Source: a virus. Taken from it: 64,000 bases of DNA. The DNA lies in the IMG/VR virus record IMGVR_UViG_3300049436_000052, positions 137,433 to 201,432 of that record. The stretch is one strand, 5' to 3'. Shown in pieces: positions 3 through 51,500 of the stretch; position 1 is the stretch's first letter; every line of letters begins with the position of its first letter. The notes below the pieces were generated by a model, which had not been told where the DNA came from, ran no database searches, and was given only the letters and a program-made list of their open reading frames with translations. Made by a program: the position numbers and the translations under genes.

Positions 3-332
3 AAATATTATAATGGAACTGAAACATTAAACAGAAATGGAGTATCAACTCAATGGGAAAGTATTGGATTTACTGGATTAACGAATAGTAGTATTGAATA
101 CAAAAATAATTTTTTAGCAACTGATGTTGTAGTTTCAAATCAAGGAATTGCATTAAATGGTGGGTATGTCAATGCTGAAACAAATGGTGCAGATCTTTCT
201 GTAGAATTAAAAAATGCACTATTAATAGGTAGTAAAATTAACGGATATAGAGATGTATTTGTAATTGAAATATTAAATATTGATGGAGCAACTGAAACAT
301 ATAATACATCATTAACTTGGAGAGAAATTTAA
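3..332 (+). CDS. 3' part of a probable virion structural protein (truncated by window edge)
   Basis: My translation of frame 3 is open from 3 to TAA 330-332 (KYYNGTETLNRNG...YNTSLTWREI*). It is Gly/Thr/Asn-rich like the other structural proteins here. Not in the ORF track because it has no start. Confidence 0.7.
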   Translation, partial: KYYNGTETLNRNGVSTQWESIGFTGLTNSSIEYKNNFLATDVVVSNQGIALNGGYVNAETNGADLSVELKNALLIGSKINGYRDVFVIEILNIDGATETYNTSLTWREI

Positions 333-342
333 AAAAAATATT

Positions 343-756
343 ATGAAAGATTTATTAACTGCAATGTTTGGAACATATTCTGGTAGTCAAATGTTAGGAT
401 ATTTATGGTTTTTTATTATTGGATATATAATATATGGACTGAATGAAACGACAGGTAGAGATATTGAATCATCAAATACACCCCGAAAATGGAATTGGAA
501 ATTCTTTTGGAAAGATAATATAAAAAGATATGTTTTAACTTTATTAACAACATATATCATTTTTAGATTTTACACAAATTTGTCAAATCAACCACTAGAC
601 TATTTTAATTGTTTCCTTATTGGTTACATTGGAGATTCTGCTTCTAAATATTTAAAAGATAGGGTTGGTTTTATTCAATCGAATCGTGAAGAATTGATGA
701 AACAACATTTAAATAATGAATTAAATAAAGAGAATCAAGAACAAATAAATCAATAA
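343..756 (+). CDS. Small membrane protein, holin-like
   Basis: 2-3 hydrophobic segments (MLGYLWFFIIGYIIYGL; YVLTLLTTYIIFRF; FNCFLIGYIG) and a charged C-terminal tail. Confidence 0.5.
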   Translation: MKDLLTAMFGTYSGSQMLGYLWFFIIGYIIYGLNETTGRDIESSNTPRKWNWKFFWKDNIKRYVLTLLTTYIIFRFYTNLSNQPLDYFNCFLIGYIGDSASKYLKDRVGFIQSNREELMKQHLNNELNKENQEQINQ

Positions 757-760
757 ACAA

Positions 761-1180
761 ATGAATTATACAACATACGACAGTAATAATTTTTTCATTA
801 AAAAAAATTCAACATATCCTATTCTAAAATACCCTCTAATTCAAAAATTAAGAGAGCAATATGATATAACTGATTCAATGTTAGAAGATTGCGCAGTAAC
901 TTTCTCTATGTTTAGCGATGATACTGGTTTATATAAAATTGCAAATTCTGCCGGAAATTTATTGATTAATTATGATTTAATAAATAATCCTGATGAGGAA
1001 AAATATACACTAACATATAAATTTAATTTATCAAATACCTCAAAATGTGGAAATTATAAAGGCGAATTTGTGATAGATTTTCTGTCTGAAGAATTTGCTT
1101 GCTTTAAATTAAAATTACCTATCAATAGTTATATTAATATTATTGTTTCAGATAGTATAACCAAAACCACAGTAATTTAG
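761..1180 (+). CDS. BppU-N-like (baseplate upper protein) beta-sandwich protein
   Basis: FFIKKNSTYPILK...VTFSM...LTYKF...NTSKCGNYKGEFVIDF...KLPI pattern resembles BppU-N family; recognised by eye. Confidence 0.5.
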   Translation: MNYTTYDSNNFFIKKNSTYPILKYPLIQKLREQYDITDSMLEDCAVTFSMFSDDTGLYKIANSAGNLLINYDLINNPDEEKYTLTYKFNLSNTSKCGNYKGEFVIDFLSEEFACFKLKLPINSYINIIVSDSITKTTVI

Positions 1181-1181
1181 A

Positions 1182-1727
1182 ATGTACGTATTAAATCAAC
1201 ATATCGTTAAAATAATCAAAGAAGAAGTTCAAAAATTTCTTAATCAATATTATTCAAATATTGGAATGTCAATTGAAGATGCTTTCAATTTAATAGATTA
1301 TCATAGTTCTTTTAGAAATTTATATCCTGGTTATGATAAAAATGATAACGAATATGAAGAAGAATTTTATTTTGATTCTAAAGAAATTGCTTATCAAAAT
1401 GTTGATAATATATTAGATATATTTAATTCATTACCAAATCCCATTCCAATATTTAGAACAATTAAGGTTAAATCAATAGATGAAATAAATTATGATTATT
1501 TAGGTGATTCGTGGTCATTTGACAAACAATCTGCTATTGATTTTGCAAATAATCAAGCAGGGGGAAATGTTTTATTATCAGCTAAAACATATTTTGATAA
1601 TGTTGATTGGAAAAATACTATTAGTGCCTATTTTTTATATTCAGATCTTTATAATTCTGAAAGTGAAAATGAAATAACGATTATCGATTCTGATAAACTA
1701 TTTGATGTTACTGCAAATTATCTTTAA
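1182..1727 (+). CDS. Putative ADP-ribosyltransferase-fold protein
   Basis: R-S-E-like triad: IPIFRT, GDSWSFDKQSAIDFA, SENEITI; N-terminal IIKEE leader. Confidence 0.5.
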   Translation: MYVLNQHIVKIIKEEVQKFLNQYYSNIGMSIEDAFNLIDYHSSFRNLYPGYDKNDNEYEEEFYFDSKEIAYQNVDNILDIFNSLPNPIPIFRTIKVKSIDEINYDYLGDSWSFDKQSAIDFANNQAGGNVLLSAKTYFDNVDWKNTISAYFLYSDLYNSESENEITIIDSDKLFDVTANYL

Positions 1728-1806
1728 AAATATTTTTTGTTAATTTTCGTTAAATTATAAAAATATTTGTTAATTTTGTCCAATAGAAATTTTTATAAAA
1801 TTTTAA

Positions 1807-2142
1807 ATGGCAGAAATTAATAAAATCACAAAAGAATTGTTTATAGATACAATAAATGCAATTCAAAAACAATTCGATCACGATGAAAAATGTCATGAAG
1901 CATTTGAAATCATACTTCCTAACGATTTTAATACAGGTTATGATAACAATATAATTGTTTGTCAATTGATAAAACTCCTTGGATTTATGATCAATGATGA
2001 AAGTTCATGGATAGAATATTTTATTTACGACTTAGAATTTGGGAAAAAATATCGTGATGGATGTGTTACTGACCAAGATGGTACTGTGAACATAGATATG
2101 TCAACACCTGAAAAACTTTTCGAATATTTAATGAAAGAATAA
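1807..2142 (+). CDS. Hypothetical protein
   Basis: 111 aa ORF with phage-like composition, collinear with neighbours. Confidence 0.7.
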   Translation: MAEINKITKELFIDTINAIQKQFDHDEKCHEAFEIILPNDFNTGYDNNIIVCQLIKLLGFMINDESSWIEYFIYDLEFGKKYRDGCVTDQDGTVNIDMSTPEKLFEYLMKE

Positions 2143-2160
2143 TAACTTATTTTTAATCTA

Positions 2161-4002
2161 ATGTCTTTCAATCCAGATAAAATAATTCTACTTGTTACTT
2201 GTGAACGCATTTCAAGAAGAAATGCATATTATGTTAAATTTCCATTTAATGAGCAACTTGTTGAAAGAATTAAAGAACTTCCAGAAGAAAATAGAAAATG
2301 GAATCCTACTGAAATTGCATGGGAAGTAAAATCTAGTTCATTGATGTCCTTAATTAGAAAATATAAAGGATCTGAGAAAATTTATTTTGATTTTGGTTCT
2401 GATGACAATAAAAAGAAATTTATTGAACTGGTTAAGAAAGATGAATTAGCTGAACTGGAAAAACAAAAAGCGATTCAAGAACTTGAAATAAAAAAGAAAC
2501 ATTGGGTCGAATATAAAAAATATTTGGAGGAAAATTATGAACAATTTAATGAAATGGTTCATAAGAATTTGAAAGAGGGTGTTAAATTATATCCTCATCA
2601 GATTCAAGCAGTTATGTTTTTTAATGAAATAAGAAGTGGTTTACTTGCTTTAGAAATGGGTACTGGTAAGAGCCTGACTTCCATAGCGTTAGCTGAACTT
2701 AATAAATTTGATAAAGTATTTGTCATAGTTCCCAACTGTTTAAAATTTAACTATTTACATGAATGTGAGCGCTTTACTAAAAATCATTCATATATTATTG
2801 GTTGGAATAAAAATAAATATACAATTGCAGAATCTAAATATATTATAGTTAATTATGATTATTTTAATGGCTCAGATAAAGAAAAAAGAGAAAATAAAAT
2901 AAAGGGTTTTTCTAAAAAAGTTGTTGATAAATTCAATAAATTAGAAATTGGTAAAATTGATTGTTTAATTTTCGATGAATCTCAAAAAATTTCTAACGTA
3001 AAAAGCCAAACTTTTTTAAATATAAAAAAAATATTTACTGATGATATTTTTAGAGATAAAAAAGTTTCTAAAATATATATGTCTGGTTCTCCAGCCCCAA
3101 ATAAAATTGGAAATTTATGGGGACAACTTAACGGTATTTCTCCATTAGATTTTCCAACGAAAACCGGATTTTTAGAAAAATATTGTGGTATGGTTTGGAA
3201 TCCAAACGAAGGTTGGGTTTATGAAGAAGAAAAAACTAGATATGAGGAATTATTTAGAGACATTTCACCATATATGTTTCGAAAAAAGAAAAAAGATGTT
3301 TTAAAAGATCTTCCAGATGTTATTATACAGAAAGTTGTTTTAGAAATGACTCCATCTGAATATCAAATTTATTTACAATTGGAAAGGGGGATTGCTAATG
3401 AATTTATTAATGAAGATGTTTTTAATCCAGCAACTAAATTACTTAGATTAAAACAATATACATCACATTTAAAAACAAAAAACGTTTCTGAATTAATTGA
3501 TATTGTATTAGAAACACCAGATAAATTAGTTATTGTTGATTTTTTTAAAGATGGTTTGTATGATCTTTTTGAAAAATATAAGAATGTTTCAGTTTTGCAT
3601 ACTGGTGATGTGAAAAAAACTGAAGATAGAGATAAGATGATTTATGATTTTCAAAATAATGAAAAAGTTAAAATCTTTTTTGGAAGTTCACAAACAATTT
3701 CAATTGGATTAACATTAACAGCAGCAAATAAAATTGGCGTTTTAACAATCCCTTGGAATTGGGATGATTTAGATCAACAAATTAGTAGGTTACAAAGGTT
3801 GGGGCAAAAAGACACAGTAAACGCATATCTTTTTATTTATAAGGATTCAATAGATGAATATACTTTAAATGTGAGTGAAAATAAAAAAAGAAATAGCTCC
3901 ATCATTATAGACGGTGAGAAATATGTTTCAAATATAGAGAGTGATGTAATTGATGGTGTTATTGGGATAATTAAAGAAAAACATAAAATAATTGAGAAAT
4001 AA
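2161..4002 (+). CDS. SNF2-family helicase with N-terminal HARP-like domain (SMARCAL1-like annealing helicase)
   Basis: N-terminal VKFPFNEQLVERIKEL..RKWNPTEIAWEV; LYPHQ Q-motif; LEMGTGKS Walker A; IFDESQ Walker B; SGSPAPN motif III; QQISRLQRLGQ motif VI. Confidence 0.9.
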   Translation: MSFNPDKIILLVTCERISRRNAYYVKFPFNEQLVERIKELPEENRKWNPTEIAWEVKSSSLMSLIRKYKGSEKIYFDFGSDDNKKKFIELVKKDELAELEKQKAIQELEIKKKHWVEYKKYLEENYEQFNEMVHKNLKEGVKLYPHQIQAVMFFNEIRSGLLALEMGTGKSLTSIALAELNKFDKVFVIVPNCLKFNYLHECERFTKNHSYIIGWNKNKYTIAESKYIIVNYDYFNGSDKEKRENKIKGFSKKVVDKFNKLEIGKIDCLIFDESQKISNVKSQTFLNIKKIFTDDIFRDKKVSKIYMSGSPAPNKIGNLWGQLNGISPLDFPTKTGFLEKYCGMVWNPNEGWVYEEEKTRYEELFRDISPYMFRKKKKDVLKDLPDVIIQKVVLEMTPSEYQIYLQLERGIANEFINEDVFNPATKLLRLKQYTSHLKTKNVSELIDIVLETPDKLVIVDFFKDGLYDLFEKYKNVSVLHTGDVKKTEDRDKMIYDFQNNEKVKIFFGSSQTISIGLTLTAANKIGVLTIPWNWDDLDQQISRLQRLGQKDTVNAYLFIYKDSIDEYTLNVSENKKRNSSIIIDGEKYVSNIESDVIDGVIGIIKEKHKIIEK

Positions 4003-4023
4003 TTAAATTTTTTTAAAATAAAA

Positions 4024-4033
4024 GTATTTATAA
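4024..4033 (+). promoter_or_regulatory. GTATTTATAA motif, putative phage late promoter
   Basis: Same 10-mer recurs 10-40 nt upstream of many start codons; here 18 nt before ATG 4052. Confidence 0.7.
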
Positions 4034-4051
4034 TTAATATCACGTAGTAAC

Positions 4052-4216
4052 ATGAAAAGAGAAAAAATATTAGTAGGAACATTTACAATCAGAATATCTA
4101 ATGAATTATTGGATAAATATAGAATATATTGTGATGAAAAGGGATTATCTTTATCTAAACGTCTACGTCTTTTAATAGAAAAAGATATTGAAAATAAAAT
4201 CGAGATTAAAAAATAG
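4052..4216 (+). CDS. Ribbon-helix-helix DNA-binding protein (54 aa, below ORF-track cutoff)
   Basis: My translation: MKREKILVGTFTIRISNELLDKYRIYCDEKGLSLSKRLRLLIEKDIENKIEIKK*. FTIRI strand followed by helix-G-helix is the RHH/CopG pattern. Confidence 0.8.
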   Translation: MKREKILVGTFTIRISNELLDKYRIYCDEKGLSLSKRLRLLIEKDIENKIEIKK

Positions 4217-13830: not shown

Positions 13831-14523
13831 ATGACTGAGAAAATAGATTTAAAAAAAATAGCTCAAGAAATTGACAAAAGAAAAAATGATGGAAGTGTTA
13901 CTCCATTATCAGAATCAACACAAATAAATGAAGCACTTTTAGGCAATAAATCAAATTTCTTAAAAAATCTTTATACATCAATTAAATATGGTGGAACCTC
14001 TGAATCAACAGAAAAAATTAAAGTATATAATAATATAATTAATGGTAAACCAATACATAATGTTTCTGAAGTACCACAACAACCAAAAAATGTTCAAAGA
14101 ATAGAAGAAAGAAAAACTATTCAAAATTATGAACCAGAATATCCTATTAATGATTTTGATAGAGAAGAACAAATGTATAGGGATATTGAAAAAAAGAAAA
14201 AATTAACATTTGGTGAATCGTTAGATCAGTTATCAGGAAAGGCTATTAATACAAATCAACCTCAAAATAATTATCAACAAATCAACCAATATAGTAAACC
14301 TGCGTTAAATGAAGAATTGATTGTTGGTAATGTAAAAAAACTTGTTGATAATTACCTTAATGAAAACTATAGCGCAATAATTGAAGAATCAATAAAAAAT
14401 GCAATTGTTGATATTTATGTTAGTGAAAAAATATTAAGTGTCTTGAATGAAAATGAAGATTTCTTAGAAAAGAAATTTAAAAGTTTTATTCAAAAAATGA
14501 GATCAAGCAATAAAAAAACGTAA
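13831..14523 (+). CDS. Hypothetical protein
   Basis: 230 aa; several INE/LNE motifs. Confidence 0.7.
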   Translation: MTEKIDLKKIAQEIDKRKNDGSVTPLSESTQINEALLGNKSNFLKNLYTSIKYGGTSESTEKIKVYNNIINGKPIHNVSEVPQQPKNVQRIEERKTIQNYEPEYPINDFDREEQMYRDIEKKKKLTFGESLDQLSGKAINTNQPQNNYQQINQYSKPALNEELIVGNVKKLVDNYLNENYSAIIEESIKNAIVDIYVSEKILSVLNENEDFLEKKFKSFIQKMRSSNKKT

Positions 14524-14543
14524 ATTCCTTTTAAATTTTTTTC

Positions 14544-14553
14544 GTATTTATAA
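14544..14553 (+). promoter_or_regulatory. GTATTTATAA putative late promoter
   Basis: Exact motif 18 nt upstream of ATG 14572. Confidence 0.7.
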
Positions 14554-14571
14554 TAGAAATATTATTTCTAT

Positions 14572-17500
14572 ATGACTTATGATGAATTTTTAAACAACTT
14601 CTTAAATAAATTTGAAGAAATAAGATCTTTTGCAGGTAAAATAAAATTTGCAAATGAATATTTAAGTAGAATTGGCAGTGGTTCTGGTAGAGTTGTTTAT
14701 GATATTGATGGTGAAAAAGTATTAAAAATAGCTAAAAATGCCAAGGGTATTGCCCAAAATGGTGAAGAAGCAAATATTGGTAATTATGATGATACAAGAC
14801 ACATAGTTGCAAAAGTTTTTAAATCTCCCGATGATGACTCATATTTAATTTCTGAAAAAGGAAAAAAAGTTAACGAAAGAAGAATCAAAGAATTGACTAA
14901 AATTCCAAGTTTACATGATTTACATTCGTTTTTAATGAATTATACATCACAAAATAACGGTGGAAGAAAAATCTTTGATCAAGATAAGGAAGTTGAACAA
15001 TTTTTATGGGATAATGAATTTGCTTATGATTTAGCTCAATTTATTTCTAATTATAGTCAATCTGCGGGCGACATGGGCAGACCAAGTACATATGGCGAAG
15101 TTCTTCGTGATGGACAACCAGCAATAGTTTTGACTGATTATGGTTTGTCTGATGAAGTATATAATAGTCACTATAGTCCACAAAGAAAACAAAAATATTC
15201 AATTTATGAAATAGATGATCTTGAAGAAATGTTAATACCGATTAATGAAAATTTAATGAATTTTATATTAAAAAGAGACAAATATCCATCTAAAACAATA
15301 AATAATATTGGCGAATTGTCTGATAAATTCCATGAATGTGTTGATAATGTTAAAGAATATTTAAATGTTGTTGAAAATAAAAAACAGTTTTATAATAATT
15401 TACTAGCATTACAAGAATATTTAATTTCTGAAAATTATTATAGTAGGGATAGGTTGAATGAAGAAAATGAAATAGATATTCAACAAATACCAAAAGTTCA
15501 AAAATGGTCAGCATTGGATAAAAACCGTGCAATTGAATTAGCAATAGAACTAACAGAAAGATTAAAATTATCACAACCAAAATTCTTAGGTGGTGGATCA
15601 TTGGGTTTTGCGTTTGAAATTAATCCTAATTTAGTTTTGAAAATTACAACAGATCCTAGTGAAGCTGATTCTGCATTGAAAATAATGAAATCAAATCCTA
15701 AACATTTAGCTAAAACATCTAATGTTTATAAAATATATGATAGTCAAAAGGATTTGTCGTATTTTGCGTTATTACAAGAAAATGTCCCAAATAAACCAGT
15801 TGATAATTTTAGAAGATTTAATAAAATATTTAATATAATATCTCCAAACGATATTTCATATAATGATTTTGTCGATTTAATAAGAAGTAGACAACCAAAT
15901 TTTGAACAATTAAATCAAATTGTTAATTTAATTTTAACTTATAATCAAACGGTTAATGTTTCAGAAAATACAAGAAAAGAAGTCCATGATTTTTTTCTTC
16001 AATTAGTTGAAATAAGAAAAGAATTAGTAAATTTGGGTGTTAAATCGGTTGATTTTATAAACCCAGAAAATTTAGGTTATAAAGACAATGTTTTAAAATA
16101 TTTTGATATTGGTGGATACAGAGCAGAAGAACCAACATTACCTGATGATTCGTTAGTGGTCGTAGAAGAAGAATATTTAAAAGAAGAATTTGATAAAGAA
16201 TATTTTAGTCAAATTGCCAATAAAATTGCTGAAATAAAAAAATATCCTCAATTAGAGTCATTAGGTTCAGGAGATAATGGAAGTGCATATGATATTGGTA
16301 ATAATAAAATATTAAAAATAACTTCTGATAAAAGTGAGGCTGCTGAAAATTTAAAACTTAAAGGAAAAAAACTTAACTATATTGCAGAACCATATGAAAT
16401 ATATTCAATAAAATCTAAAGTAAATCAAAATTCTCCAGAAGTTTATGTTATTGTTTTGGAAAAATTAAGAACAGATCGCAATTATTTTCACAAACAATAT
16501 GAAAGATTAAAATATGTATTTTCATTATTAGGAATTGATTTCTTTGATGTTGTTGATTACTATTATTATAAAAATCAAGGGTTTTATGACAACAATGAAA
16601 AAATTCAGAAAAAAATAATGCCATATTTTGAAAAAAATCCTAAAGATTGGAAATTTTTCGAATCTTTATTAAAAATATCAGAAGAAGTTGAAAGAAATAA
16701 TATTGATTCAATGGATTTCCTAAATCCAGATAATTTAGGATTTAAACCCAATGGAGATATTGCATTTTTTGATGTTGGATTTGGTGATGCAAATATGATT
16801 AGCAAACCTGAAGAACTAACTATAGATGAAAATAAAAGGGTTCTTTCATCCATGAAAGGAAGTTCAACTGTTGAGGTTAAGAAAAAATGTAGATTAGGTG
16901 GTTTAGGAAATACAAGTGCACAATGCAATAAAGGTGATATAAAAAATTTAAATATAAAACCATTAAATGAAACAATAGTTCCTAATAGAACTTTTTGGGG
17001 TTGGGTTTCACCAGAACTTGAATTTTATGAAGTTCCAAAATTAAATCACAAGGATTTTATTATGAGACAATATAAAAAATATGATTTTGGTTGGGATTAT
17101 GATAGAGTATTTGATCAAGCAATGAAAGATGGATGGGTTAGAGTTGTTTACGAAAACGAACCAAATTTACGAAGATTTTATAGTGAATTATTTCTATATG
17201 GAAATGATGAAGAACATGTAATTTATGTATTAAAAACATTATTTTATGATTTGGTAAAATACGGAAACAATAAAATTTTCGTTGATTGGGAAAATAATAA
17301 AAGTAGTAAAGTATTTACCACAGATAATTCAGAAAATAAAGCAGATTTTTTTGACTACCTATTTGAAAACATAACTAACGAAGGCGTTGCAGACAAATAC
17401 GCTGAAAAGGAATTTAATATAGAACCAAAATTTACTAAGTTTGAAAAACAATATAAAAAACAACAAAATATTGAAAATGAAGAAGAGGTTGTTGGACAAA

Positions 17501-29182: not shown

Positions 29183-32100
29183 GTGGGAAAAGTAAAAGTT
29201 GTTAATAATAAATTAGATTTAAACTTAATAGGAGAATCTCCATCCGAAACAATATTTCAATTTGGAACATTTTTCGTTACTTCTAATTTTGATGGTAAAA
29301 AAACTAAAGATTATTCAGATCAATTGAGTAGTTTTGTAACGCCAATTACATTAAAGACATTAAACGTTTCTGAAACGCAATTAGATGTATTGAATGTTAA
29401 AACTAATAAAGTAGTATTAAATTTAGACAAATCTGATTTAAAAACATTTGTTAGATTTGGTTCAGCATATGAATTTTTCAGAATATCACTTCAAAACGTT
29501 ATTGTTAATTATCCAGGGAGTTTATTTGTAAATTCACAAGTAGTTAGAGGTGGTAATGTGACATTTAGTGGATTTACCTATAATCCATTGACAAACAAAT
29601 CACAAATAACAATTCCACTAAATGCTGTTGTAAATAAATTTGGTTTAATCGTTGATTATGGAAATACAACAGAGCCAGATAATATCGCATTAAAAAATTT
29701 AAATACATCCTATAATAAATATATTTTATGGACTTCATACACTCCAACAGATAATACACATACAATATTAGGGTTTACTGGTTTTACAAAAAATAATGGT
29801 GTTTTAATACTTGAAGTTCTTGGAAATCCTCTTCCAATGATGACAGGTACTAGCGGAATATTAGATTTTCATATTAAACCAACTAATTATGTTTTTGAAG
29901 AATTTAGAACAATATTGGATTATTATGAAAAATATATTGTATCTGAAAGAAGTGCTGACAATAGTGGGTTTGTTTTTGTAGTTAAAGATCCAACTTTACT
30001 TGATAATGGAACAATAAACTATGTTAATACAACAGTTTCATGGCCAACAACGGATAAATATAATATTGATATTGATAATTCGAATTATGATAATTTGTTA
30101 AGAATTTTATTAAATATAGGTAGTAAATATGATGAGATAAAAACAAATTTAATATCAAGATTTTTAACACCAACATCAATAAAAACCTATGATTTAACAC
30201 AAGAAGGAAAAGTTGATAAATTACTAAAAATATATGGTCATGAATTTGACATAATGAGACAATTTATTGATTCTATAGCATATATCAATACGGTTACATA
30301 TAATAAAGTTAACAATATTCCAGATCAGATTGTAAATAATCTTGCAAGAACGTTTGGTTGGAAATATTTTTCATTGTTGAATGAAAGTGAATTGGTAAGT
30401 AGTTTTTTGACAATTGATGAAAATGAAAGAAATACAAACACTGATTTATTACCATCTGAAATTGATATTGAATTATGGAGAAGAATTTTAATTAATACTT
30501 CTTATTATTGGAAAAGTAAAGGAACTAGAGACGCTATTAAATCAATGTTTTTGTTAATAGGAATACCAGAACCATTTATAAACATAACTGAATATGTTTA
30601 TACTGTTAATGGAAAAATAGATCCAAGAACACAAACAATACCACAAGCATATTTTCCAACAAATTCTTTTCCATATAATAATGATGGTTATCCTGTTGCT
30701 CCATTGGAGACAAATAGTTTCTTTTTTCAAGTTTCTGGTGATACTGATAATGGACAAACATATATGAATGTATTTCGTCAAGCAGGTTTTAATTTATTGA
30801 GAACAGTTGACAATAAAAAATCATGGATTCAAACAGGTGCAACAACAAGATCACATTCAACAACCCCCCAATATTATCAAGAAGATAGTAAACTTATAAT
30901 TAATACTAAGGAAATTGATGTTGCATTAGACACTGCTCGTGGAATTGAATATGATGTCTATAGATATATTAAAGAACAAGACTTTCCAGCAAATTCAAGT
31001 GGATATACAATACCATTTAATTATATTAACATTTCTTTAGGTTATACATTAAGTGCAAATACATTTACATTACCATTTACTCCAGAGGGTGATTTTGAAG
31101 TTAGATATAATGGAATTTTGTTAAATGCACCTAAAACGGGAACGACTAGTGGTATTACATATCAAAGTGATTATATTGTAAATGGAAATCAATTTACTTT
31201 AAATTATCCAGCATATTATACAAACAATAATAGAGATGTAATTCAAGCAACATATGTTTATTCAGGAGGCACTACAACACCAATTAGTGGGGTTACTGTA
31301 AAATATGTTGTTACCAGAGTAAAGGCTAATATAACAGGTACAATTGTTCCATTACCATCAAATGCAAATGGTGACATACAAGTAACCATTAATGGTATTG
31401 CATTAACTAAAGGAACTAACCAATTTACTGCTGATTATATTATTGATCCAAATAATAGTGGACAAATTATAATACAAAATCCTGAAATTATTTCATATTT
31501 AGCAATCCCAGAAAATAGTTATGTTCAGGTTGTATATATAACAGTAACAGGAAGCACAAGTATTGCAGCACGTAATGAATTGTTAAGGATCGATAGTTTT
31601 AATACTAGTAAATTATATTTTAGTTCAACAGCTAATAAATATGTTTATAAACTTAATTATAAAACAAAAAGTGCTAATGAAATAAAAATATTGATAAATG
31701 GTATTGCAATCGAACCATTAACTGATTATACTTTAAACAATAACAACCCATATGAAATATATTTACCAAATGGTTTAAAATATGGAGATGTGATAAGTGT
31801 TTATTATTTGATTGGTGGTTCTGATTATTTAAATCCTGTTATTAGTAACGATTTTGGAATTGGTGACATTTCAAATTTATCTTTTCTTGAATTTATCGAG
31901 CTAATTCAAAGAAAAATGATTAATGCAACAAATAGAAAAATTGTTACAGACTATAGTGGTGGTTGGTATCCAACATTATTAAAAATTTATATAACATATC
32001 TTGAAAGAGCAAATTTATCAACAACAGATCCACTAAGATCTAATGGATATACTTTTGAAAATTTATATCCGTTTTTGAGCAAATATAATGCTTTTTTTCA

Positions 32101-43866: not shown

Positions 43867-44952
43867 ATGGTTCAAAATCCAGAAATTCAAAGTATTGTAA
43901 AAAATACTTTTAATGAGGTTAAAAATTATTTGAAGTCAGATCAGATTTCCGTTAATTGTCCTCGTTGTGCAGAAGAAAATGGAGGAATTATTGATGGTAA
44001 GTTTAATCTCGAAATAAATACGAAAAAGAACCTGTTTCGTTGCTGGAAGTGTTCGAATCCTTACTTTTCCGGTTCATTGAAAAAATTGTTGAGATTATAT
44101 GCAACAAGATCTAACTATGAATTGTATAAATCATATGTAGGTAATAATTATTTTTTCGGAAATGGTGAAATTGATATAGACTACGAAGATTTATGGATTG
44201 AATTGCCAAAAGAAGTGATATTATTTTCACAAATGGATTATACAAATCCAAGCCATTTAGAGGCTTATAATTATTTAATACTTGATAGAAAATTAAATCA
44301 AGAAATAATTTTTAAATTTAGACTTGGTTTTTGTTTAGAAGGAAGATACACAAAAAGAATTATATTTCCTTCTTATGATGAGAATGGTATTGTTAATTAT
44401 TTTGTTGCAAGAAATTATGACCTAAAAAATAAAAAGAAATCTCCATATGATAATCCTAAATATGGAAAAGATAAAATTATATTTAATGAAGGTTATATTA
44501 ATTGGGATTCATCAATTTATTTAGTTGAGGGGGTTTTTGAGTTAGCAACATTCCCAATAAATACAATACCATTATTAGGAAAAAAACTGTCAACAACGCT
44601 ATTTAAAAAATTAAATGAGTTAAAACCAAATATAGTTATATTATTAGATCCTGATGCACATAAAGATGCTGTTGAATTATATTATCAACTATATTCAATA
44701 TACATTGGACAAGAAGAAAAAATTAAAATTATAAAATTACCATATGAAAAAGATTTAGATTTGATTAGAAAGAATAAAGGTATTGATGATGTTATTAAAT
44801 GTTTGTACAATGCCAGAACTCTAACTATCGATGATTATTTTAGTAAAAAGTTAGTTAATTTAAATGACGGAAGAAATTCAAACAGAAAATTCCAAGATTA
44901 TTCAAAATATTCTGAATGGGGGAGATCTGGAAGCACAAAATCATTTATATGA
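43867..44952 (+). CDS. dnaG: DnaG-type primase
   Basis: CPRC..CWKC zinc finger; RIIFP..G.VNYFVARN; YLVEG; LLDPDA TOPRIM. Confidence 0.9.
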   Translation: MVQNPEIQSIVKNTFNEVKNYLKSDQISVNCPRCAEENGGIIDGKFNLEINTKKNLFRCWKCSNPYFSGSLKKLLRLYATRSNYELYKSYVGNNYFFGNGEIDIDYEDLWIELPKEVILFSQMDYTNPSHLEAYNYLILDRKLNQEIIFKFRLGFCLEGRYTKRIIFPSYDENGIVNYFVARNYDLKNKKKSPYDNPKYGKDKIIFNEGYINWDSSIYLVEGVFELATFPINTIPLLGKKLSTTLFKKLNELKPNIVILLDPDAHKDAVELYYQLYSIYIGQEEKIKIIKLPYEKDLDLIRKNKGIDDVIKCLYNARTLTIDDYFSKKLVNLNDGRNSNRKFQDYSKYSEWGRSGSTKSFI

Positions 44953-45457
44953 AATTTGTAAAAATAATATTGAAGCATATTTGAAATATAAATATCCTAA
45001 ATATATTGATTATGATGATGATGTTTCTGAAATAATTACAAAAATATTTGATAATTTAAATTTATTTGATCAGAATAGATCAAATCTTAAAACATGGATT
45101 ATTTCAATAACAAATAACCATATAATTGATAAATGGAGAGATAATAAAATTTCATCAATAAAACAAAATAAAAAAAATAATCAAACAATTTCTGAAGATA
45201 TTAATGAAACATTTTTTAGTAGTAGTTCTACAACACAAACGAATAAAAATATTGATTTTGAAACGAAAGACCTTGTAAATTATTTATATTCTCAAATCTC
45301 ATATCCAGATTGTGAATTGTTAGATATGAAATATGTTCAAGGCTATACGCACGAAGAAATTGGGAATAAATTTAATTTAAGTAGTGCAACAATTTCAAAT
45401 AGAATTAATTATATTAAATCAAAGTTGAAAAAGAATAATAAGGATTTGTTAAAATAA
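44864..45457 (+). CDS. ECF-type RNA polymerase sigma factor
   Basis: Region 2: DDVSEIITKIFDNL..FD..SNLKTWIISITNNHIIDKWR; region 4: MKYVQGYTHEEIG..LSSATISNRI. Confidence 0.85.
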   Translation: MTEEIQTENSKIIQNILNGGDLEAQNHLYEICKNNIEAYLKYKYPKYIDYDDDVSEIITKIFDNLNLFDQNRSNLKTWIISITNNHIIDKWRDNKISSIKQNKKNNQTISEDINETFFSSSSTTQTNKNIDFETKDLVNYLYSQISYPDCELLDMKYVQGYTHEEIGNKFNLSSATISNRINYIKSKLKKNNKDLLK

Positions 45458-45955: not shown

Positions 45956-46354
45956 ATGAAAAATTTAATAAGTATTGAACCAATAGCAGTGAAGGATAAA
46001 AATGATGTTGTTAAAGCATTGACAATTCTTGAAAAAATTGGTATTAAAAGGATGACTGAAGAACAAAAGAAAAATTATCTTGCTGATGAAACAAGAACTG
46101 TTGATAATAATTTTATGATTCAAGAAGATGATGGTGGGTTTAGAATACAATCACATTATATTGGATTTGGAATATCTTTGGAAAGTCTTGAAAAACAAGT
46201 TAACGATATACTTGAAAAGCATCCAAATATTTGTGATAAAATTAATGAAATTCTTGATAAAAAAGAACAACTTACTAAACAGATTAATGATATAAAAGAA
46301 AATATTGATGTTCTAAATAAAAATATATCAATGATTGAGTTAAAAGAAAATTAG
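45956..46354 (+). CDS. Hypothetical protein with C-terminal coiled coil
   Basis: 132 aa. Confidence 0.7.
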   Translation: MKNLISIEPIAVKDKNDVVKALTILEKIGIKRMTEEQKKNYLADETRTVDNNFMIQEDDGGFRIQSHYIGFGISLESLEKQVNDILEKHPNICDKINEILDKKEQLTKQINDIKENIDVLNKNISMIELKEN

Positions 46355-46360
46355 AAAAAT

Positions 46361-46750
46361 ATGAAATATAAACTAAATGGATTAAATGAATTGAGTAAAC
46401 AATTTAATAGTTTTGTTGTAGAAATGGGTTTTGATAATAATGACATACCACTTAGAATAGCACTTATACATTCCGAAGTATCAGAAGCTTTTGAAGCTTA
46501 TCGTAAAGATAAATATGCTAATATTAATAAATATAATGAAAATGTTATATCTATTGATAAATCAGATGAAAAGTTTAAAGAACTATTTGAAAATACGATG
46601 AAAGATTCATTTGAAGATGAGTTGGCAGATTCAATCATTAGATTACTTGATTTATGCGGTAAATTGAATATTAATATTGAAAAGCATATTGAATTAAAAA
46701 TGAGGTATAATGAAATGCGTGGTTATAAATTTGGCGGTAAAAAATTTTAA
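46361..46750 (+). CDS. MazG-like (all-alpha NTP pyrophosphohydrolase) protein
   Basis: IALIHSEVSEAFEA ... FEDELADSIIRLLDL. Confidence 0.85.
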   Translation: MKYKLNGLNELSKQFNSFVVEMGFDNNDIPLRIALIHSEVSEAFEAYRKDKYANINKYNENVISIDKSDEKFKELFENTMKDSFEDELADSIIRLLDLCGKLNINIEKHIELKMRYNEMRGYKFGGKKF

Positions 46751-47048
46751 ATAAAATAGAAAAAACTAAAAAACAAAAATAATAGGATGATTACAATAAT
46801 AGTAGAAAGAGATAAAACTTGTAAAATGGCAAGAGTTAGTGATGGTGTTGGGAATGGGATGGAAGGAAATTTTTGGGATTTTCATAATGGTTGTCATGGA
46901 TTATATAAGTTTGGTGAATTTAATACAGTAACCGAATTTGCTCATGTCCTCAAAAAATTTCATGAAGCAAATGGTGAAAAGGTAAAAATCATTAACTCTG
47001 ATTATAAATGGAATGCTTGATTATAAGTTTGGTGGTAAGAATTTTTAA
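46709..47048 (+). repeat. 42-bp imperfect direct repeat (35/42) at 46709-46750 and 47007-47048
   Basis: AATGAAATGCGTGGTTATAAATTTGGCGGTAAAAAATTTTAA vs AATGGAATGCTTGATTATAAGTTTGGTGGTAAGAATTTTTAA. Confidence 0.85.
46787..47020 (+). CDS. Hypothetical protein between the direct repeats
   Basis: 77 aa; EGNFWDFHNGCHG. Confidence 0.75.
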   Translation: MITIIVERDKTCKMARVSDGVGNGMEGNFWDFHNGCHGLYKFGEFNTVTEFAHVLKKFHEANGEKVKIINSDYKWNA

Positions 47049-47088
47049 CAAAATTAAAAATTAATATGAGTATTATTATAAATAAATT

Positions 47089-47418
47089 ATGGAAATAAAA
47101 ACGATTACAATTGATGGACAAGATTTTTTCCTTGTACCTAAATGTGAAACAAAAACAGATTTAGATGTTCTTATTGAACCAATTGAACAAAAGATTAAAA
47201 AAATATTCTATGTGAAAACACGATATATGTGGGGTAAAGAATATGACCAAAACCTTATTGATGGTAAGGATAAAGATGGTGGGTGGTGGAAATATCGTAG
47301 AGAAGAATGGGAAAATGGTGATTTCACTTGGATTAGAATGTTTGGTGGTGAAGTTGAAGCGAGAAAAGAAGATGTTGTTGTTTTGGAAAGTTGGTATCAA
47401 AGAACGATTAAACCATAA
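47089..47418 (+). CDS. Hypothetical protein
   Basis: 109 aa, Trp-rich C-terminal half. Confidence 0.7.
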   Translation: MEIKTITIDGQDFFLVPKCETKTDLDVLIEPIEQKIKKIFYVKTRYMWGKEYDQNLIDGKDKDGGWWKYRREEWENGDFTWIRMFGGEVEARKEDVVVLESWYQRTIKP

Positions 47419-47471
47419 TTTTTTAAAGTTTTTCGCAGAGAACTATGATTGAAACACGATTGTAGTATTGT

Positions 47472-47602
47472 GTTTAACGTAAAATGTATGGTGTCGTGGC
47501 TGCCTTTAATCGAAGCCACATAGTTTCAAAACTTAACAACTTTAAATATGGAAAACGAACTTTCAAAAACAGAGCAGCCATGCACTATACATAATGTTAG
47601 TA
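47472..47602 (+). mobile_element. Integron attC-like site
   Basis: GTTTAAC (RYYYAAC, 47472-47478) ... GTTAGTA (47596-47602); arms AACGTAAAATGTATGGTGTCGTGGCTGC and GCAGCCATGCACTATACATAATGTT are imperfectly complementary with bulges. Confidence 0.65.
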
Positions 47603-47916
47603 GTAGTACGGGTTGGGAGACAACTGATTTTATGTACGGAATTAAAGTATTACTTTCTGAAAAGCCAAAAGATAAAAGTTTACTAAAAGCTATCGAGGAG
47701 CTTGGGGAACTTTTGGTTAAATTATTGCAATACCTAAACAAACCAGAATCTATAAGCGAAGGTGATATTGAAGAAGAAATTGCAGATTGTGAAATGCAAT
47801 TTCATATTCTTAACAACTATTTCCCAGTTCCTCAAAGTATAAGAGAAAGGAAGATTGATAAATTTTTACAATCAAAAGATTATAAGCAGTACAAAACTAA
47901 ATACGAAGGTAAATAG
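47548..47916 (+). CDS. Second MazG-like protein, with an N-terminal leader encoded inside the attC-like site
   Basis: KAIEELGELL ... IEEEIADC; leader MENELSKTEQPCTIHNVSSS. Confidence 0.8.
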   Translation: MENELSKTEQPCTIHNVSSSTGWETTDFMYGIKVLLSEKPKDKSLLKAIEELGELLVKLLQYLNKPESISEGDIEEEIADCEMQFHILNNYFPVPQSIRERKIDKFLQSKDYKQYKTKYEGK

Positions 47917-47940
47917 TATTACTGCTAACTATTATATATA

Positions 47941-47989
47941 TTTTTATGGTTGTAAATATCATTAAACTAGATAATTACAACCATAAAAA
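47941..47989. terminator. Long hairpin, bidirectional terminator between convergent genes
   Basis: TTTTTATGGTTGTAA (47941-47955) / TTACAACCATAAAAA (47975-47989) perfect 15-bp inverted repeat. Confidence 0.8.
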
Positions 47990-48002
47990 TTAAAGATTAA
48001 AT

Positions 48003-48407
48003 TTATAAGATTTCAATAACCTTAGAACCGTTTTTTATTTCCATTTTTGGTATCGTTATTCTTAAAATACCATTATTTAATGAAGATTTAATTTCGTCAA
48101 CGTTAATATTTTCAGGAAGTGTAAATATTTTTTCATATTTTCCAAAAAAAGTTGATTTTTTATTGTATTTTAGATCATCAATTTCTTTACGTTCAGCATT
48201 AATAGTTAATTGATTATTTTCAACATTAATTTTAACATCTTCTTTTTTTATTCCAGCTAAAGAAAATTCAACAAAATATTCATTATCATTTTCAATTATA
48301 TCATAAGGAATTGAATTAAAATTAACAACATTTAATTTATTGTCGAATAAATTATCTAACATCATATCAAACAAATTGCTTGAATTATTCCATTTTTTTA
48401 TTAACAT
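48003..48407 (-). CDS. Small heat shock protein (Hsp20)
   Basis: YDIIENDNEY..LAGIKKEDVKI..LTINAER..GKYEKIFTLPENI..NNGILRITIPK. Confidence 0.95.
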   Translation of the reverse strand: MLIKKWNNSSNLFDMMLDNLFDNKLNVVNFNSIPYDIIENDNEYFVEFSLAGIKKEDVKINVENNQLTINAERKEIDDLKYNKKSTFFGKYEKIFTLPENINVDEIKSSLNNGILRITIPKMEIKNGSKVIEIL

Positions 48408-48554
48408 ATTTTTTCAGTTTTTAGTAAAATTATTTTTTGTTTTTGTGATTTTATCAAAAAACGTACAAATCTAATTTTTAACTAAATAAGTGACATTTTG
48501 TTATAAATTTTAGAAAAAAATATGATCTTTTGTCAAAATAAGAAAAATTATATT

Positions 48555-48562
48555 TATTTTTG
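48555..48562 (+). promoter_or_regulatory. Bacteroidota -7 element TATTTTTG(CA)
   Basis: TAnnTTTG 23 nt upstream of ATG 48586; TTTG at 48529-48532. Confidence 0.55.
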
Positions 48563-48585
48563 CATTTAAATAAATTTTAAAATTT

Positions 48586-51500
48586 ATGATAATAACTAAA
48601 ATTTGTCATCTTGCAGACATCCATTTGCGTAAAGCAACCACACGTAATGAAGAATATATACAAGTTTTTGAAAATTTATATAAATCTTTAGAAGAAAAGA
48701 AACCAGATAGAATAGTGATTGTGGGTGATCTTGTCAACGAATATTTAGATTTAAGTCCTAGTCAGATTTTATTGGTAAGTAATTTCTTAAATAGATTATC
48801 TGAAATCGCTGAAGTCCGCATCACCAAAGGGAATCACGATTGTCTTGGGGCTAATAGAAATTTAATTGATTCAATTGGAAGTATTGTTGAAATTCTTAAA
48901 AATCCCAAAATAATTTATTATAATAAAACAGGCTTTTTTTATGATGAAAATGTCATTTGGTCGGTTTGGAATCATAGAGAAAAGAATAATAATCCTTGGA
49001 AACTAAAAGAAGCTAAAACAATAGATAAAAATAATTATACTACTATTGATTTATTTCATGATCCGATTTATGGTTGTAAAACATCTTCTGGATATGAAAT
49101 GAAGGATAAATATTATTATACCCTAAACGACTTTAAAGGCACTATTTCTGCTTTTGGTGATATTCATCTCATGCAATATCTAAACAAGGAAAAAACAAAA
49201 GCATATTGTGGTTCATTAATTTCTCAAGATCATTCTGAAGGAAATTCTAATTTTCATGGATATTTGTTATGGAATATTCAAAATAAAACTGTTGAAGAAA
49301 TTCCAATTCACAATGATTATTCTTTTAAGACAATTAAAATAACACCGTTTGTCGATTTTGATGGTTTAAAATTCGAAATCGAAAATTCGACTAAGTTTAT
49401 GAAAGTTAGGTTTGATTGGAATACTTTACCACAAACAAAAAATAATGACAATGAAAGAAAATTGGTTGAATATATAAAATCTAAATATGAAAATATTATA
49501 AGCATATCTCATAAAACATCTTTTATTGTAGATGATAAGATAAATATTAAAGAAAACCATACACTACAAAATATTTCAAATAAATCAGTACAACATGAAA
49601 TTTTTAGAGAATATCTTGAAAAAATAGGTACAGAAAAGAAATTAATTGATGATGTGATTACATTAGATGAAGAAATATTTGATAATTCAGAATTTGTTAA
49701 TGATTTCAATATTCAATGGGATGTGATTAAATTTGGTGGTAAAAATTTTATGTCATATGAAAATATAGATGTTGATTGGCGAGATAAAAGTGGATTGTTT
49801 CAAATATTTGGCGAAAATACGGCAGGCAAAACAACAATTTTTAAAATTTTAACATATATTCTTTTTAATAAATCATTAGAAACTGAAACAAGAATTAAAT
49901 ATGGCGATTTGCGATATGTTAATAATCGTAATAATTCTAATGAGACTGAGACTTATCTTGTTTTGAAAGCAAATGAAGAATATTATGGATTGAAAAGAAA
50001 AACTCGAATTGTAAAAAATGGAGATGGTATAGTAACAAGTACACCAACAACAGTCAATTATTATTTATTATCCACTCCAGATGATGTAATGGATGACAAC
50101 ACTTCCATCGAAAATTTAGACGATACTAGAAGAACCAAAACACAGAAAAAGATTGAATCTATAATTGGTTCATATGAAAATTTTATGCGTATTTGTTTTA
50201 TCACATCAGACACAATGAATCATATTTTGAAAAATACTGAATCTGAATTTATTGATACATTATTATATGATTCTGGTTTGGATATATTTGATAAAAAACT
50301 TGAAAATCTTAAAATCTACCAGAAAAAAATTAATGAAAAGCAAAGAATAATTTGTAATGTCGATGTTTTATCAGTTGAAAATTCAACATTAACTCAGGAA
50401 AATGTGAATTATTTAGTTGAGATAAAAAACATTGAAACAATAAATTTACCAAAAATACAAACTGAAATTCAAAATAATAGAATTTCTGTTGATGATTTTA
50501 ATAAGAAAATGTATAGAATTGACCCTGAAATTTACAATCTAAACATAAATAATATTAATTATGATATAAGCGTTCAAAACAAAAAAATAAACGATTTACG
50601 AGCAAAAAATGAAGTATTGTTAAAAAATATTTCATTATTAAAGACAACATATGATGAAGACAGATTAAAATGTTTATTAGAAGATAAAGAAAAGGAAAAA
50701 CAAAAAGAATACCAACAAAGACTTCTTATTAAAACTATTGAAGGAGAAATCAACGAAAATCAACATCAGATAGAAATTATCAATGGAGATGTGTTTCGTC
50801 TAAAAAATCAAGGTAGAGAATGTAAAGAGGAAATTAAAAGACTAAAAGAATCAAAAATATGTCCAACGTGTGGTCAAGAATTAACTGCTGAACATCAAAA
50901 ACATCTTGATGAAAACATAAAAATTGTTGAAGTAAAAATGTATGGCATTGCAGATCAAATAAAAGCTAAAGAAAATATTGATAAACCAAAATATCTTAAA
51001 ATTATTGAAGAAAAGAAAACAAAAATAGTTTCAATTCAAAACGAAATAACTAACAATAGCTTACTTTTTGAATCAATGCTTAAAGAAATTGGAACATTAG
51101 AAAACGATAAAAATGATGTAGATAAATATAAAACATTAAAATCAGAAATTGAACAAATACCATTGATTATACAAAATGAACAATTAAAAATTGATATTCT
51201 AAATCAAAAGATTATCAGTTATAATAATAGTTTGATTCAGATAGAAGAAAATAAAAAAACTGAAAAGATTATTGAAAAAATAAAATCTGAAATTTTTGTA
51301 TTGGAACAAAGTGAGAATATCGAAAAGGAAAATATTTTTAAAAGAAAAACTTTTATATTGAATAATGAAAATAAAATTAATAATAATAGTCAATCAATAG
51401 CAGCATTTAAAGCACAAGAATACCAAGACATGATTATTAATTTATATAAGAAATGTGTTCATAGAGATGGAATTCCAAGACAAATGCTTATTAATTATAT

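Follow-up and report, generated by a model that had tools for sequence, protein, structure and literature searches.

Architecture of the locus

In this work we analysed a window of 64,000 nt, bases 137433-201432 of a 334,326-bp AT-rich virus record (IMG/VR record IMGVR_UViG_3300049436_000052), and focused on a short segment of it in which a small cargo open reading frame (ORF) starts inside an attC-like hairpin and is enclosed by two mutually complementary ends, called here X and X' (Table 1). Positions are window coordinates unless they are said to be genomic. Taken together with the relatives described below, window 47479-47929 can be regarded as one cassette of an integron-like site-specific recombination system that is common among Bacteroidota phages, a reading to which we give a probability of about 0.68.

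Table 1. Features of the cassette and its borders (window coordinates)
Feature	Position	Strand	Description
Left boundary	47465-47478	+	GTATTGTGTTTAAC; family X' motif ATT-N5-TAAC
attC-like hairpin site	47475-47599	+	stem 47484-47503/47574-47592, loop 47505-47573
Cargo ORF	47548-47916	+	122 aa; ATG in the hairpin loop
X, 5' end of the cargo segment	47596-47609	+	GTTA-N5-AGT...; pairs with X'
X', 3' end of the cassette	47916-47929	+	ATT-N5-TAAC; complementary to X
Right element, putative orphan attI-like site	47930-48005	+	core, hairpin, AT-rich tail

An earlier sequence-only reading of this DNA had described an RYYYAAC...GTTAG element of about 130 bp with bulged arms, a cargo start codon placed in the attC loop so that the right arm codes for EQPCTIHNVSS, and a complementarity between the start and the end of the cassette, and all three were confirmed by measurement. 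GTTTAAC (47472-47478) and GTTAG (47596-47600) flank an element of 125-128 bp, the arms pair over 19 bp, two of them G.T, leaving the T at 47494 bulged, and the base of the hairpin is closed by pairing of TAACGT (47475-47480) with ATGTTA (47594-47599). The cargo ORF reads EQPCTIHNVSS across the 3' arm and the junction that follows it. X and X' are paired at 14 of 14 positions, by 12 Watson-Crick and two G.T pairs, and X' begins on the final base of the cargo stop codon.

TAAC stands at both borders of the segment, and we propose 47475-47478 as the crossover point and 47926-47929 as the second crossover core. The left boundary carries a motif whose ATT (positions -11 to -9) and TAAC are conserved across 84 units of the family; it probably derives from the 3' end of an upstream cassette that has decayed, it has weak homology to the 3' end of another unit of this genome (unit 2a), and no partner X was found for it upstream. 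The right element is composed of the core TATTATATATA (47930-47940), a hairpin of 47941-47955 with 47975-47989, and then the AT-rich tail.

The first 20 residues of the cargo protein form a leader encoded by the loop, the 3' arm and X. Over residues 21-112 the cargo protein shares 58% identity with a leaderless protein of 110 aa, which is encoded in an ordinary operon of another jumbo phage, and since this homology starts at residue 21, the first 20 residues are encoded by the scaffold of the cassette. The cargo had been taken for MazG in the sequence-only reading, and this may be kept tentatively: the protein has no match in Pfam, it matches PHROG 2245 (nucleoside triphosphate pyrophosphohydrolase) with an E-value of 1.9e-5, and its sole match in the PDB is YpjD (2gta, E 0.36), which hints at a MazG/YpjD-like protein.

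Related units in the same genome

The window contains one of at least six units, which are distributed over three loci of the genome and lie all on the + strand; three belong to array 2 (genome 211.0-212.0 kb) and two to array 3 (205.3-206.1 kb). A second copy of the hairpin, 81% identical to that of the window (unit 1), was found 27 kb downstream in unit 2b. The homology of the two units stops directly after GTTA and a different ORF then follows in unit 2b, where the start of the cargo is complementary to its own end over 17 bp, with a sequence unlike that of the window. The right element after TAAC is present in three genomic copies, 78-89% identical, which also follow arrays 2 and 3, and in array 3 the recombinase gene comes straight after it. 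The third right element is preceded by a hairpin with wholly different stem sequence, the same architecture and a 15-bp pairing of the cassette ends.

Generic scans for GTTA...TAAC pairing or for TAAC-hairpin-GTTA did not rise above the shuffle background genome-wide, and the motif-specific search for end pairing gave 5 matches in the genome against about 1 expected. It is the recurrence of the whole design that exceeds chance, and not the length of the pairing alone. The same phage was found at low depth in other bioreactor metagenomes with the same arrangement, and the pattern of the right element gave no match in a search of viral contigs.

A solo hairpin of the family, the seventh in the genome, lies on the minus strand (genome 80371-80495, 55 bits), and a 115-aa ORF begins in its loop; neither an X/X' partner nor an attI-like site was found for it.

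The recombinase and its linkage to the arrays

As the sequence-only reading had stated, no tyrosine recombinase is to be found in the window. The search for one elsewhere in the phage, which had been suggested as a check, was positive: the only PF00589 (Phage_integrase) match of the 334-kb genome lies at genome 206555-206955, 21 kb downstream of the window cassette, and its ORF starts at genome 206208, that is 96 nt past the last TAAC of array 3 and directly after the right element. The gene (genome 206208-206985; L022 1153-1931) is, however, a pseudogene: in comparison with intact homologues it has lost the segment with the arginine of the HxxR box, its frame is shifted, and the C-terminal piece with the tyrosine stands in another frame.

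The N-terminal domain of the recombinase is Phage_int_SAM_4. Among the NCBIfam models, XerA/integron integrase and TIGR02249 (integron integrase) match it best, and neither reaches its cut-off; for TIGR02249 the two pieces of the genome's recombinase reach 100.8 and 42.2 bits and the intact relatives 151-156, against a cut-off of 265. The intact homologues are 266-268 aa long, and by a count on the ORFs their catalytic Lys region and HxxR are about 49 residues apart. Matches to IntI models and to IntI4 (2a3v) are split into two stretches, the additional domain specific to IntI (the I2 helix insert) is absent, and the closest solved structures are those of XerA (5hxy, 4a8e). Judged from its sequence, the recombinase is a XerA-like member of the Xer/IntI clade.

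Homologues of the recombinase were collected by a protein search of viral contigs, which yielded 54 loci. A strict screen for the hairpin together with the end pairing detected units in 24 of them, always upstream of the gene and on its strand, and no unit was detected on the opposite strand over 493 kb. At a looser threshold about 90 units were obtained, which are on the same strand as the gene, nearly all directly upstream of it, and arranged in arrays of up to about 9; many of the arrays are contiguous, with a regular hairpin of 117-123 nt between the cassettes. Those arrays that reach the gene stop about 45-95 nt ahead of the recombinase start, and in at least 10 related loci TAAC-TAYTATATRTA stands between the last cassette and the recombinase start, which is the motif found in the window at 47926-47940.

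In order to avoid a bias by the proximity of the recombinase, a covariance model was built from 27 hairpins and was run on whole phage records. In this genome there were six matches, the window hairpin scoring 68 bits (E 1e-9) with model R1. In three phage records of 280-330 kb with a single tyrosine recombinase each, all matches are 0.6-3.5 kb upstream of it on the same strand, and a fourth whole record, which holds a native homologue of the window cargo, has neither the enzyme nor the hairpin. Furthermore, three phages that are 88-98% identical outside the array differ in the array only. The left border of the variable part is the stop-TAAC of a conserved gene and its right border a TAAC-GTTCCC located about 75 nt upstream of the recombinase ATG; even the leftmost hairpins, beyond the stop-TAAC, differ among these near-identical phages.

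Contigs assigned to Bacteroidota, Flavobacterium, Bacteroidales and Prolixibacteraceae among them, carry homologues with small arrays, and the nearest integrases of cultured phages are those of Cellulophaga and Polaribacter phages (32-40% identity); on these grounds the host is probably a member of the Bacteroidota.

Conserved anatomy of the family

A unit of the family is built of (T/C)AAC-G, a 17-20 bp stem of free sequence, a loop of 60-90 nt, T-GTTA and then the cargo (medians: stem 17 bp, loop 74 nt, cargo 315 nt). The consensus of the junctions (n=84) is ...AT....T.TA.....T-GTTA-N5-AGT for the one and ATT-N5-TAAC-G.TT for the other, and the core can be written as N5-(T/C)AAC-G and T-GTT(A/G)-N5-AGT, in which AAC and GTT are invariant. 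The helix between the cassette ends has typically 15 bp in the roughly 90 units and 14 bp in the window, and its N5 is variable between cassettes and covaries within each of them. At helix position 10, counted from the G of GTTA as 0, a G.T pair is present in 86 of 90 units; the G in the window is base 47606, the 11th of X. The T standing 15 nt before GTTA is 95% conserved.

The stems conserve their structure. Compensatory changes were observed in 16 of the 17 variable stem pairs of the 27 hairpins, slid registers fall to 36-48% paired positions, and the covariation score of 0.518 (0.169 in shuffles) was reached by none of 500 shuffles. A census of 47 stems counted 651 Watson-Crick pairs, 62 pairs with G in the 5' arm and T in the 3' arm, 2 T.G pairs and no A.C pair; this bias of 62 to 2 in the orientation of the wobbles refers to L024-L077 and this genome. 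With DNA parameters every one of the 47 units folds more stably as the + than as the - strand, and the + strand alone can fold. On the 5' side TAACG is followed by 1-8 unpaired nt, which form an asymmetric spacer. The bulges do not occupy fixed positions (units 1 and 3b differ in this respect); the G.T wobbles are conserved instead.

The cargo is encoded on the + strand in 85 of 90 units, and in 34 of 90 an ORF starts at an ATG of the loop and enters the cargo, 24 of these reading GTT as Val. Homology between cargos was almost never seen, and 5 of the 10 largest cargos are orphan C5 or N6/N4 DNA methyltransferases. The check for other cargo behind the same leader, proposed with the sequence-only reading, gave a positive answer: the hairpin, X, X' and a 30-aa leader are common to L031 4903-5211, L074 5100-5418 and L029 881-1252, and their cargo bodies are unrelated, which suggests that scaffolds might be reused for different genes.

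Crossover position and proposed mechanism

Two positions of the crossover were compared. In Model A, which is that of the sequence-only reading, the crossover is at GTTA and the hairpin is part of the upstream cassette, whereas in Model B it is at the TAAC 5' of the hairpin, and the hairpin, X, cargo and X' make up one unit. Homologous cargos were too rare to link a hairpin to its cargo; the linkage of hairpin to X and the boundaries of the arrays were used instead. The arrays of the near-identical phages are bounded by TAAC on both sides, the arrays reaching the recombinase end in TAAC-TAYTATATRTA in at least 10 loci, hairpins that resemble each other more often have the downstream X in common than the upstream X', and the three loci with common hairpin, X, X' and leader have different next hairpins. 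On this pattern we favour Model B. The hairpin, which had been supposed to be a resident attC, is probably not one, and the sequence after 47929, which had been supposed to be a truncated attC, turned out to be a copy of the site that abuts the recombinase gene elsewhere; because the arrays end in a conserved TAAC-TAYTATATRTA, the right element is read as an attI-like site and not as a broken attC. IntI cuts canonical attC bottom strands at 5' ...AA|C of the folded strand. Since the folding strand is here the + strand, the same rule predicts a cut at TAA|C.

The cassette would thus have the order G-hairpin-GTTA-X-cargo-X'-TAAC. We infer that it recombines as single-stranded DNA: the + strand would fold, and in an excised circle X' and X would lengthen the base of the hairpin to a continuous helix of about 36 bp, which could bind the recombinase on either side of a TAACG/TGTTA centre, with the X/X' arm and with the inner stem. 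The small XerA-like tyrosine recombinase might cut the folded strand at 5' ...TAA|C, as IntI does on attC bottom strands, and the cut strand would be exchanged with the attI-like TAAC-TAYTATATRTA just upstream of the recombinase's own gene, so that cassettes would stack between the fixed left flank and the attI-like site. The cargo genes lie on the folding strand and face the recombinase gene, and many start in the loop and so acquire a short N-terminal leader read through GTT (Val). In this genome the HxxR box of the recombinase is gone, so that the window cassette is probably a relic, frozen in place together with its orphan attI-like site.

Several points weigh against this interpretation. 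No recombination event was observed, and neither excision joints nor alternative cassettes were present in the contigs of the other bioreactor metagenomes. The genome's own recombinase is inactive, and only one of the three arrays has a recombinase gene next to it. The IntI insert is held to be necessary for the recognition of attC hairpins, and the enzyme here is without it. The enzyme could be a plain lysogeny integrase, one relative being flagged as a provirus, and in the smaller relatives it could also serve lysogeny. The comparison of units 1 and 2b is recorded here as unexplained: their hairpins are 81% identical (window 47439-47599, L002 1465-1624) and their X segments are unrelated, while a weak homology runs about 40 nt upstream of TAAC; this is easier to reconcile with an exchange at GTTA than with one at TAAC. 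Finally, the G.U pairs of the sense strand, the start codon in the loop and the strong RNA fold would fit an mRNA element as well; a role of the hairpin in the mRNA, for translation start or stability, is compatible with a role in the DNA and the two may coexist. The published experiment in which IntI1 gave no verified recombinants with a Polaribacter phage site of the same design (P12002L_attC1; PMC9892861) is to be counted on the same side.

Comparison with known systems and alternative explanations

Integrons are seen as devices of bacteria, with IntI and its special insert as the defining feature. The units described here resemble them in their hairpin sites with AAC...GTT cores and stems of free sequence, in the single preferred folding strand with structure kept rather than sequence, in the complementarity of each cassette's first bases to its own site, and in the stacking of diverse single-gene cassettes at an attI-like site 5' of a recombinase gene of the Xer/IntI clade. 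The array abuts this site in array 3 and in the relatives, the window having an orphan copy only, and along the folding strand the order is that of canonical integrons, cassettes, then attI, then the recombinase in sense. The differences are as follows. The recombinase, of 266-268 aa, is without the insert specific to IntI, the pairing of the cassette ends covers 15 bp instead of 7, there are conserved G.T wobbles instead of extrahelical bases, the cargo is on the folding strand, facing the recombinase and often starting in the hairpin loop, and the carriers are phages, jumbo phages included.

Other systems share single traits with this one. In the case of the CTX phage, XerCD integrates folded single-stranded phage DNA, the hairpin of which mimics a duplex core site; there too a Xer-type enzyme without IntI insert acts on a hairpin from one DNA strand, but a whole phage genome enters the host dif site, and there are neither cassette arrays nor an attI-like site adjacent to the enzyme. 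The pdif modules of Acinetobacter plasmids and the PeSL elements of T4-type phages are similar in that small gene modules between short recombination or regulatory repeats are shuffled among related replicons. The former are, however, 28-bp duplex XerC/D sites of conserved sequence and the latter conserved promoter/stem-loops serving homologous recombination, whereas the sites here are strand-specific and conserve structure, not sequence.

A part of the family has been seen before and was classified as ordinary attC. In 17 phages Qi et al. 2023 (PMC9892861) described clusters of attC sites lacking integron integrases (CALINs), the Polaribacter phage P12002L being a notable one, and in the accessible parts of that paper its sites are treated as ordinary integron attCs without integrase, with no account of a dedicated recombinase, an attI-like site, extended end pairing or an array family. 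The P12002L_attC1 primer sequence maps to the minus strand of P12002L (30005-30058), where we find the TAACGG...ATTGTTAG design of the present family, directly after an X' end. The cargo of that CALIN and the cargo of the relatives here both include orphan DNA methyltransferases (PMC9892861). In a search of the literature no description of the full system was found.

The strongest alternative acts at the RNA level: the hairpin and the X/X' helix would be mRNA structures which control translation start, stability or processing of small cistrons, the recombinase being an unrelated lysogeny integrase. It would account for the fact that the RNA fold of the + strand is stable (z = -4.3 against shuffles) while the same 151 nt folded as single-stranded DNA are unremarkable on both strands, as well as for the wobble pairs, every one of which is on the sense strand, for the loop start codons (34/90) and for the sense orientation of the cargo (85/90). 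We nevertheless consider it unlikely, because it leaves unexplained why, in whole genomes, the units lie close to a single recombinase gene and in a fixed orientation to it, why the arrays end in a conserved TAAC-TAYTATATRTA, why those of near-identical phages differ exactly at TAAC and why unrelated cargos occur within the same scaffold. In addition, an Rfam search of 46000-49000 with E up to 10 gave noise only, without any riboswitch, ribozyme or intron, and in a linear transcript two competing helices would claim the TAAC/GTTA cores, whereas in a circle these helices stack. Shuffling by homologous recombination, in which the flanks are repeated regulatory modules (as in PeSL) enabling swaps or segmental duplication, is quite unlikely too. 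The left and right elements are indeed repeated in this genome at 78-89% identity, and the boundaries of homology are mosaic, but the flanking repeats of the relatives are not conserved in sequence: the stems are wholly different and share structure, and only the cores and a few positions, about 5-7 bases per junction, are conserved, too few for homologous exchange. Neither the cassette-specific X/X' covariation with its invariant G.T nor the strict link to a recombinase gene would be expected.

That the phage holds a canonical CALIN, in which host-type attC cassettes were captured by IntI at a resident phage attC with crossover at G|TTA and truncation of the downstream attC, was the conclusion of the sequence-only reading. 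Its integron-like cassette, with ends that would pair in the excised circle, stands; the host-type integron and the CALIN we judge very unlikely. AAC/GTT cores are present, GTTTAAC fits RYYYAAC, the homology of units 1 and 2b ends exactly at GTTA, and phage CALINs have been published, that of a Polaribacter phage included (PMC9892861). On the other hand, no IntI is encoded in the genome, where the sole tyrosine recombinase, like its array-side relatives, is XerA-like, without the IntI insert and below the integron-integrase cut-off. Moreover the R' sequence GTTAGTA does not match GTTRRRY, the leftmost hairpins differ between sister phages and hence are not resident, the downstream element is a conserved attI-like site with no attC remnant, and it is the coding strand that folds, opposite to the situation in canonical cassettes. 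A CALIN is understood as a group of two or more neighbouring attC sites without an integrase in the vicinity, and the window has a single hairpin; array 2, with three units and no adjacent recombinase, would correspond to it in layout. A transposable element with terminal inverted repeats (a cargo-bearing element like a miniature inverted-repeat transposable element), with X/X' as the repeats and TAAC as a 4-bp target duplication, is the least probable of all. The flanking of every unit by TAAC on both sides and the 15-bp inverted ends would agree with it, yet these ends differ between units save for the fixed positions, no transposase is associated, all insertions are found within a single array, at one site next to a tyrosine recombinase, scattered copies at unrelated TAAC sites are absent from five whole genomes, and the strand-specific wobbles imply folding and not recognition of a duplex.

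Two further candidates were discarded. The two hairpin copies do not differ specifically at adenines, which excludes the repeat of a diversity-generating retroelement, and an intron is excluded as there are no flanking exons, the upstream ORF stopping at 47418 and the downstream gene being convergent.

Implications

On a broader view, Bacteroidota phages, those of jumbo size included, would run an integron-type gene capture of their own, with an XerA-like enzyme devoid of the insert, recombination between hairpins and attI-like sites, leader fusions through the start codon of the loop and mainly counter-defence cargo; to this generalisation we give an even chance. If it is true, the IntI insert is not needed for the recombination of hairpin cassettes, and the system would be either a precursor or a convergent copy of the integron. 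Its confirmation would widen the definition of integron-type systems, would provide a testable model for the origin of integrons from Xer recombinases, and would explain the swapping of small accessory genes, many of them anti-restriction methyltransferases, among Bacteroidota phages. It would also reveal a compact design, in which a recombination site doubles as supplier of a start codon and which could serve as a tool. For annotation it follows that small phage ORFs starting in such hairpins bear a scaffold-encoded leader that is foreign to the native protein.

Cultured phages and neighbouring genes

Hairpins of the family are carried by cultured phages as well. A scan restricted to TAAC/GTTA gave nothing in Freya_10 and Ingeline_1; the true core is (T/C)AAC/GTT(A/G), and Freya_10 and P12002L do carry hairpins. 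In the Polaribacter phage Freya_10 (L078) a hairpin with a CAAC/GTTG core occupies positions 1-140, at the start of the record. Among the ten near-identical isolates Freya_1 to Freya_10 the position of the integrase varies from 98 to 4195, and the region upstream of it is variable in length. The virulent P12002L (L090), which has no integrase, carries complete units at 14502-15197 and 31120-30053, one of them between tail genes and the others beside methyltransferase genes in the region published as a CALIN.

In the surroundings of the window cassette, a scan for promoters and terminators gave nothing above shuffles, a nucleotide search of phage records returned one irrelevant match of 150 nt only, and no relatives were found through the neighbouring 1106-aa protein. 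About 800 bp upstream of the cassette, at 46361-46750, lies a gene for a much clearer MazG-type pyrophosphatase (PHROG E 1.7e-27), and 2 kb upstream, at 44864-45457, one for a sigma factor of the extracytoplasmic function (ECF) type. Downstream a gene for an Hsp20/alpha-crystallin small heat-shock protein (48003-48407, minus strand) converges on the cassette.

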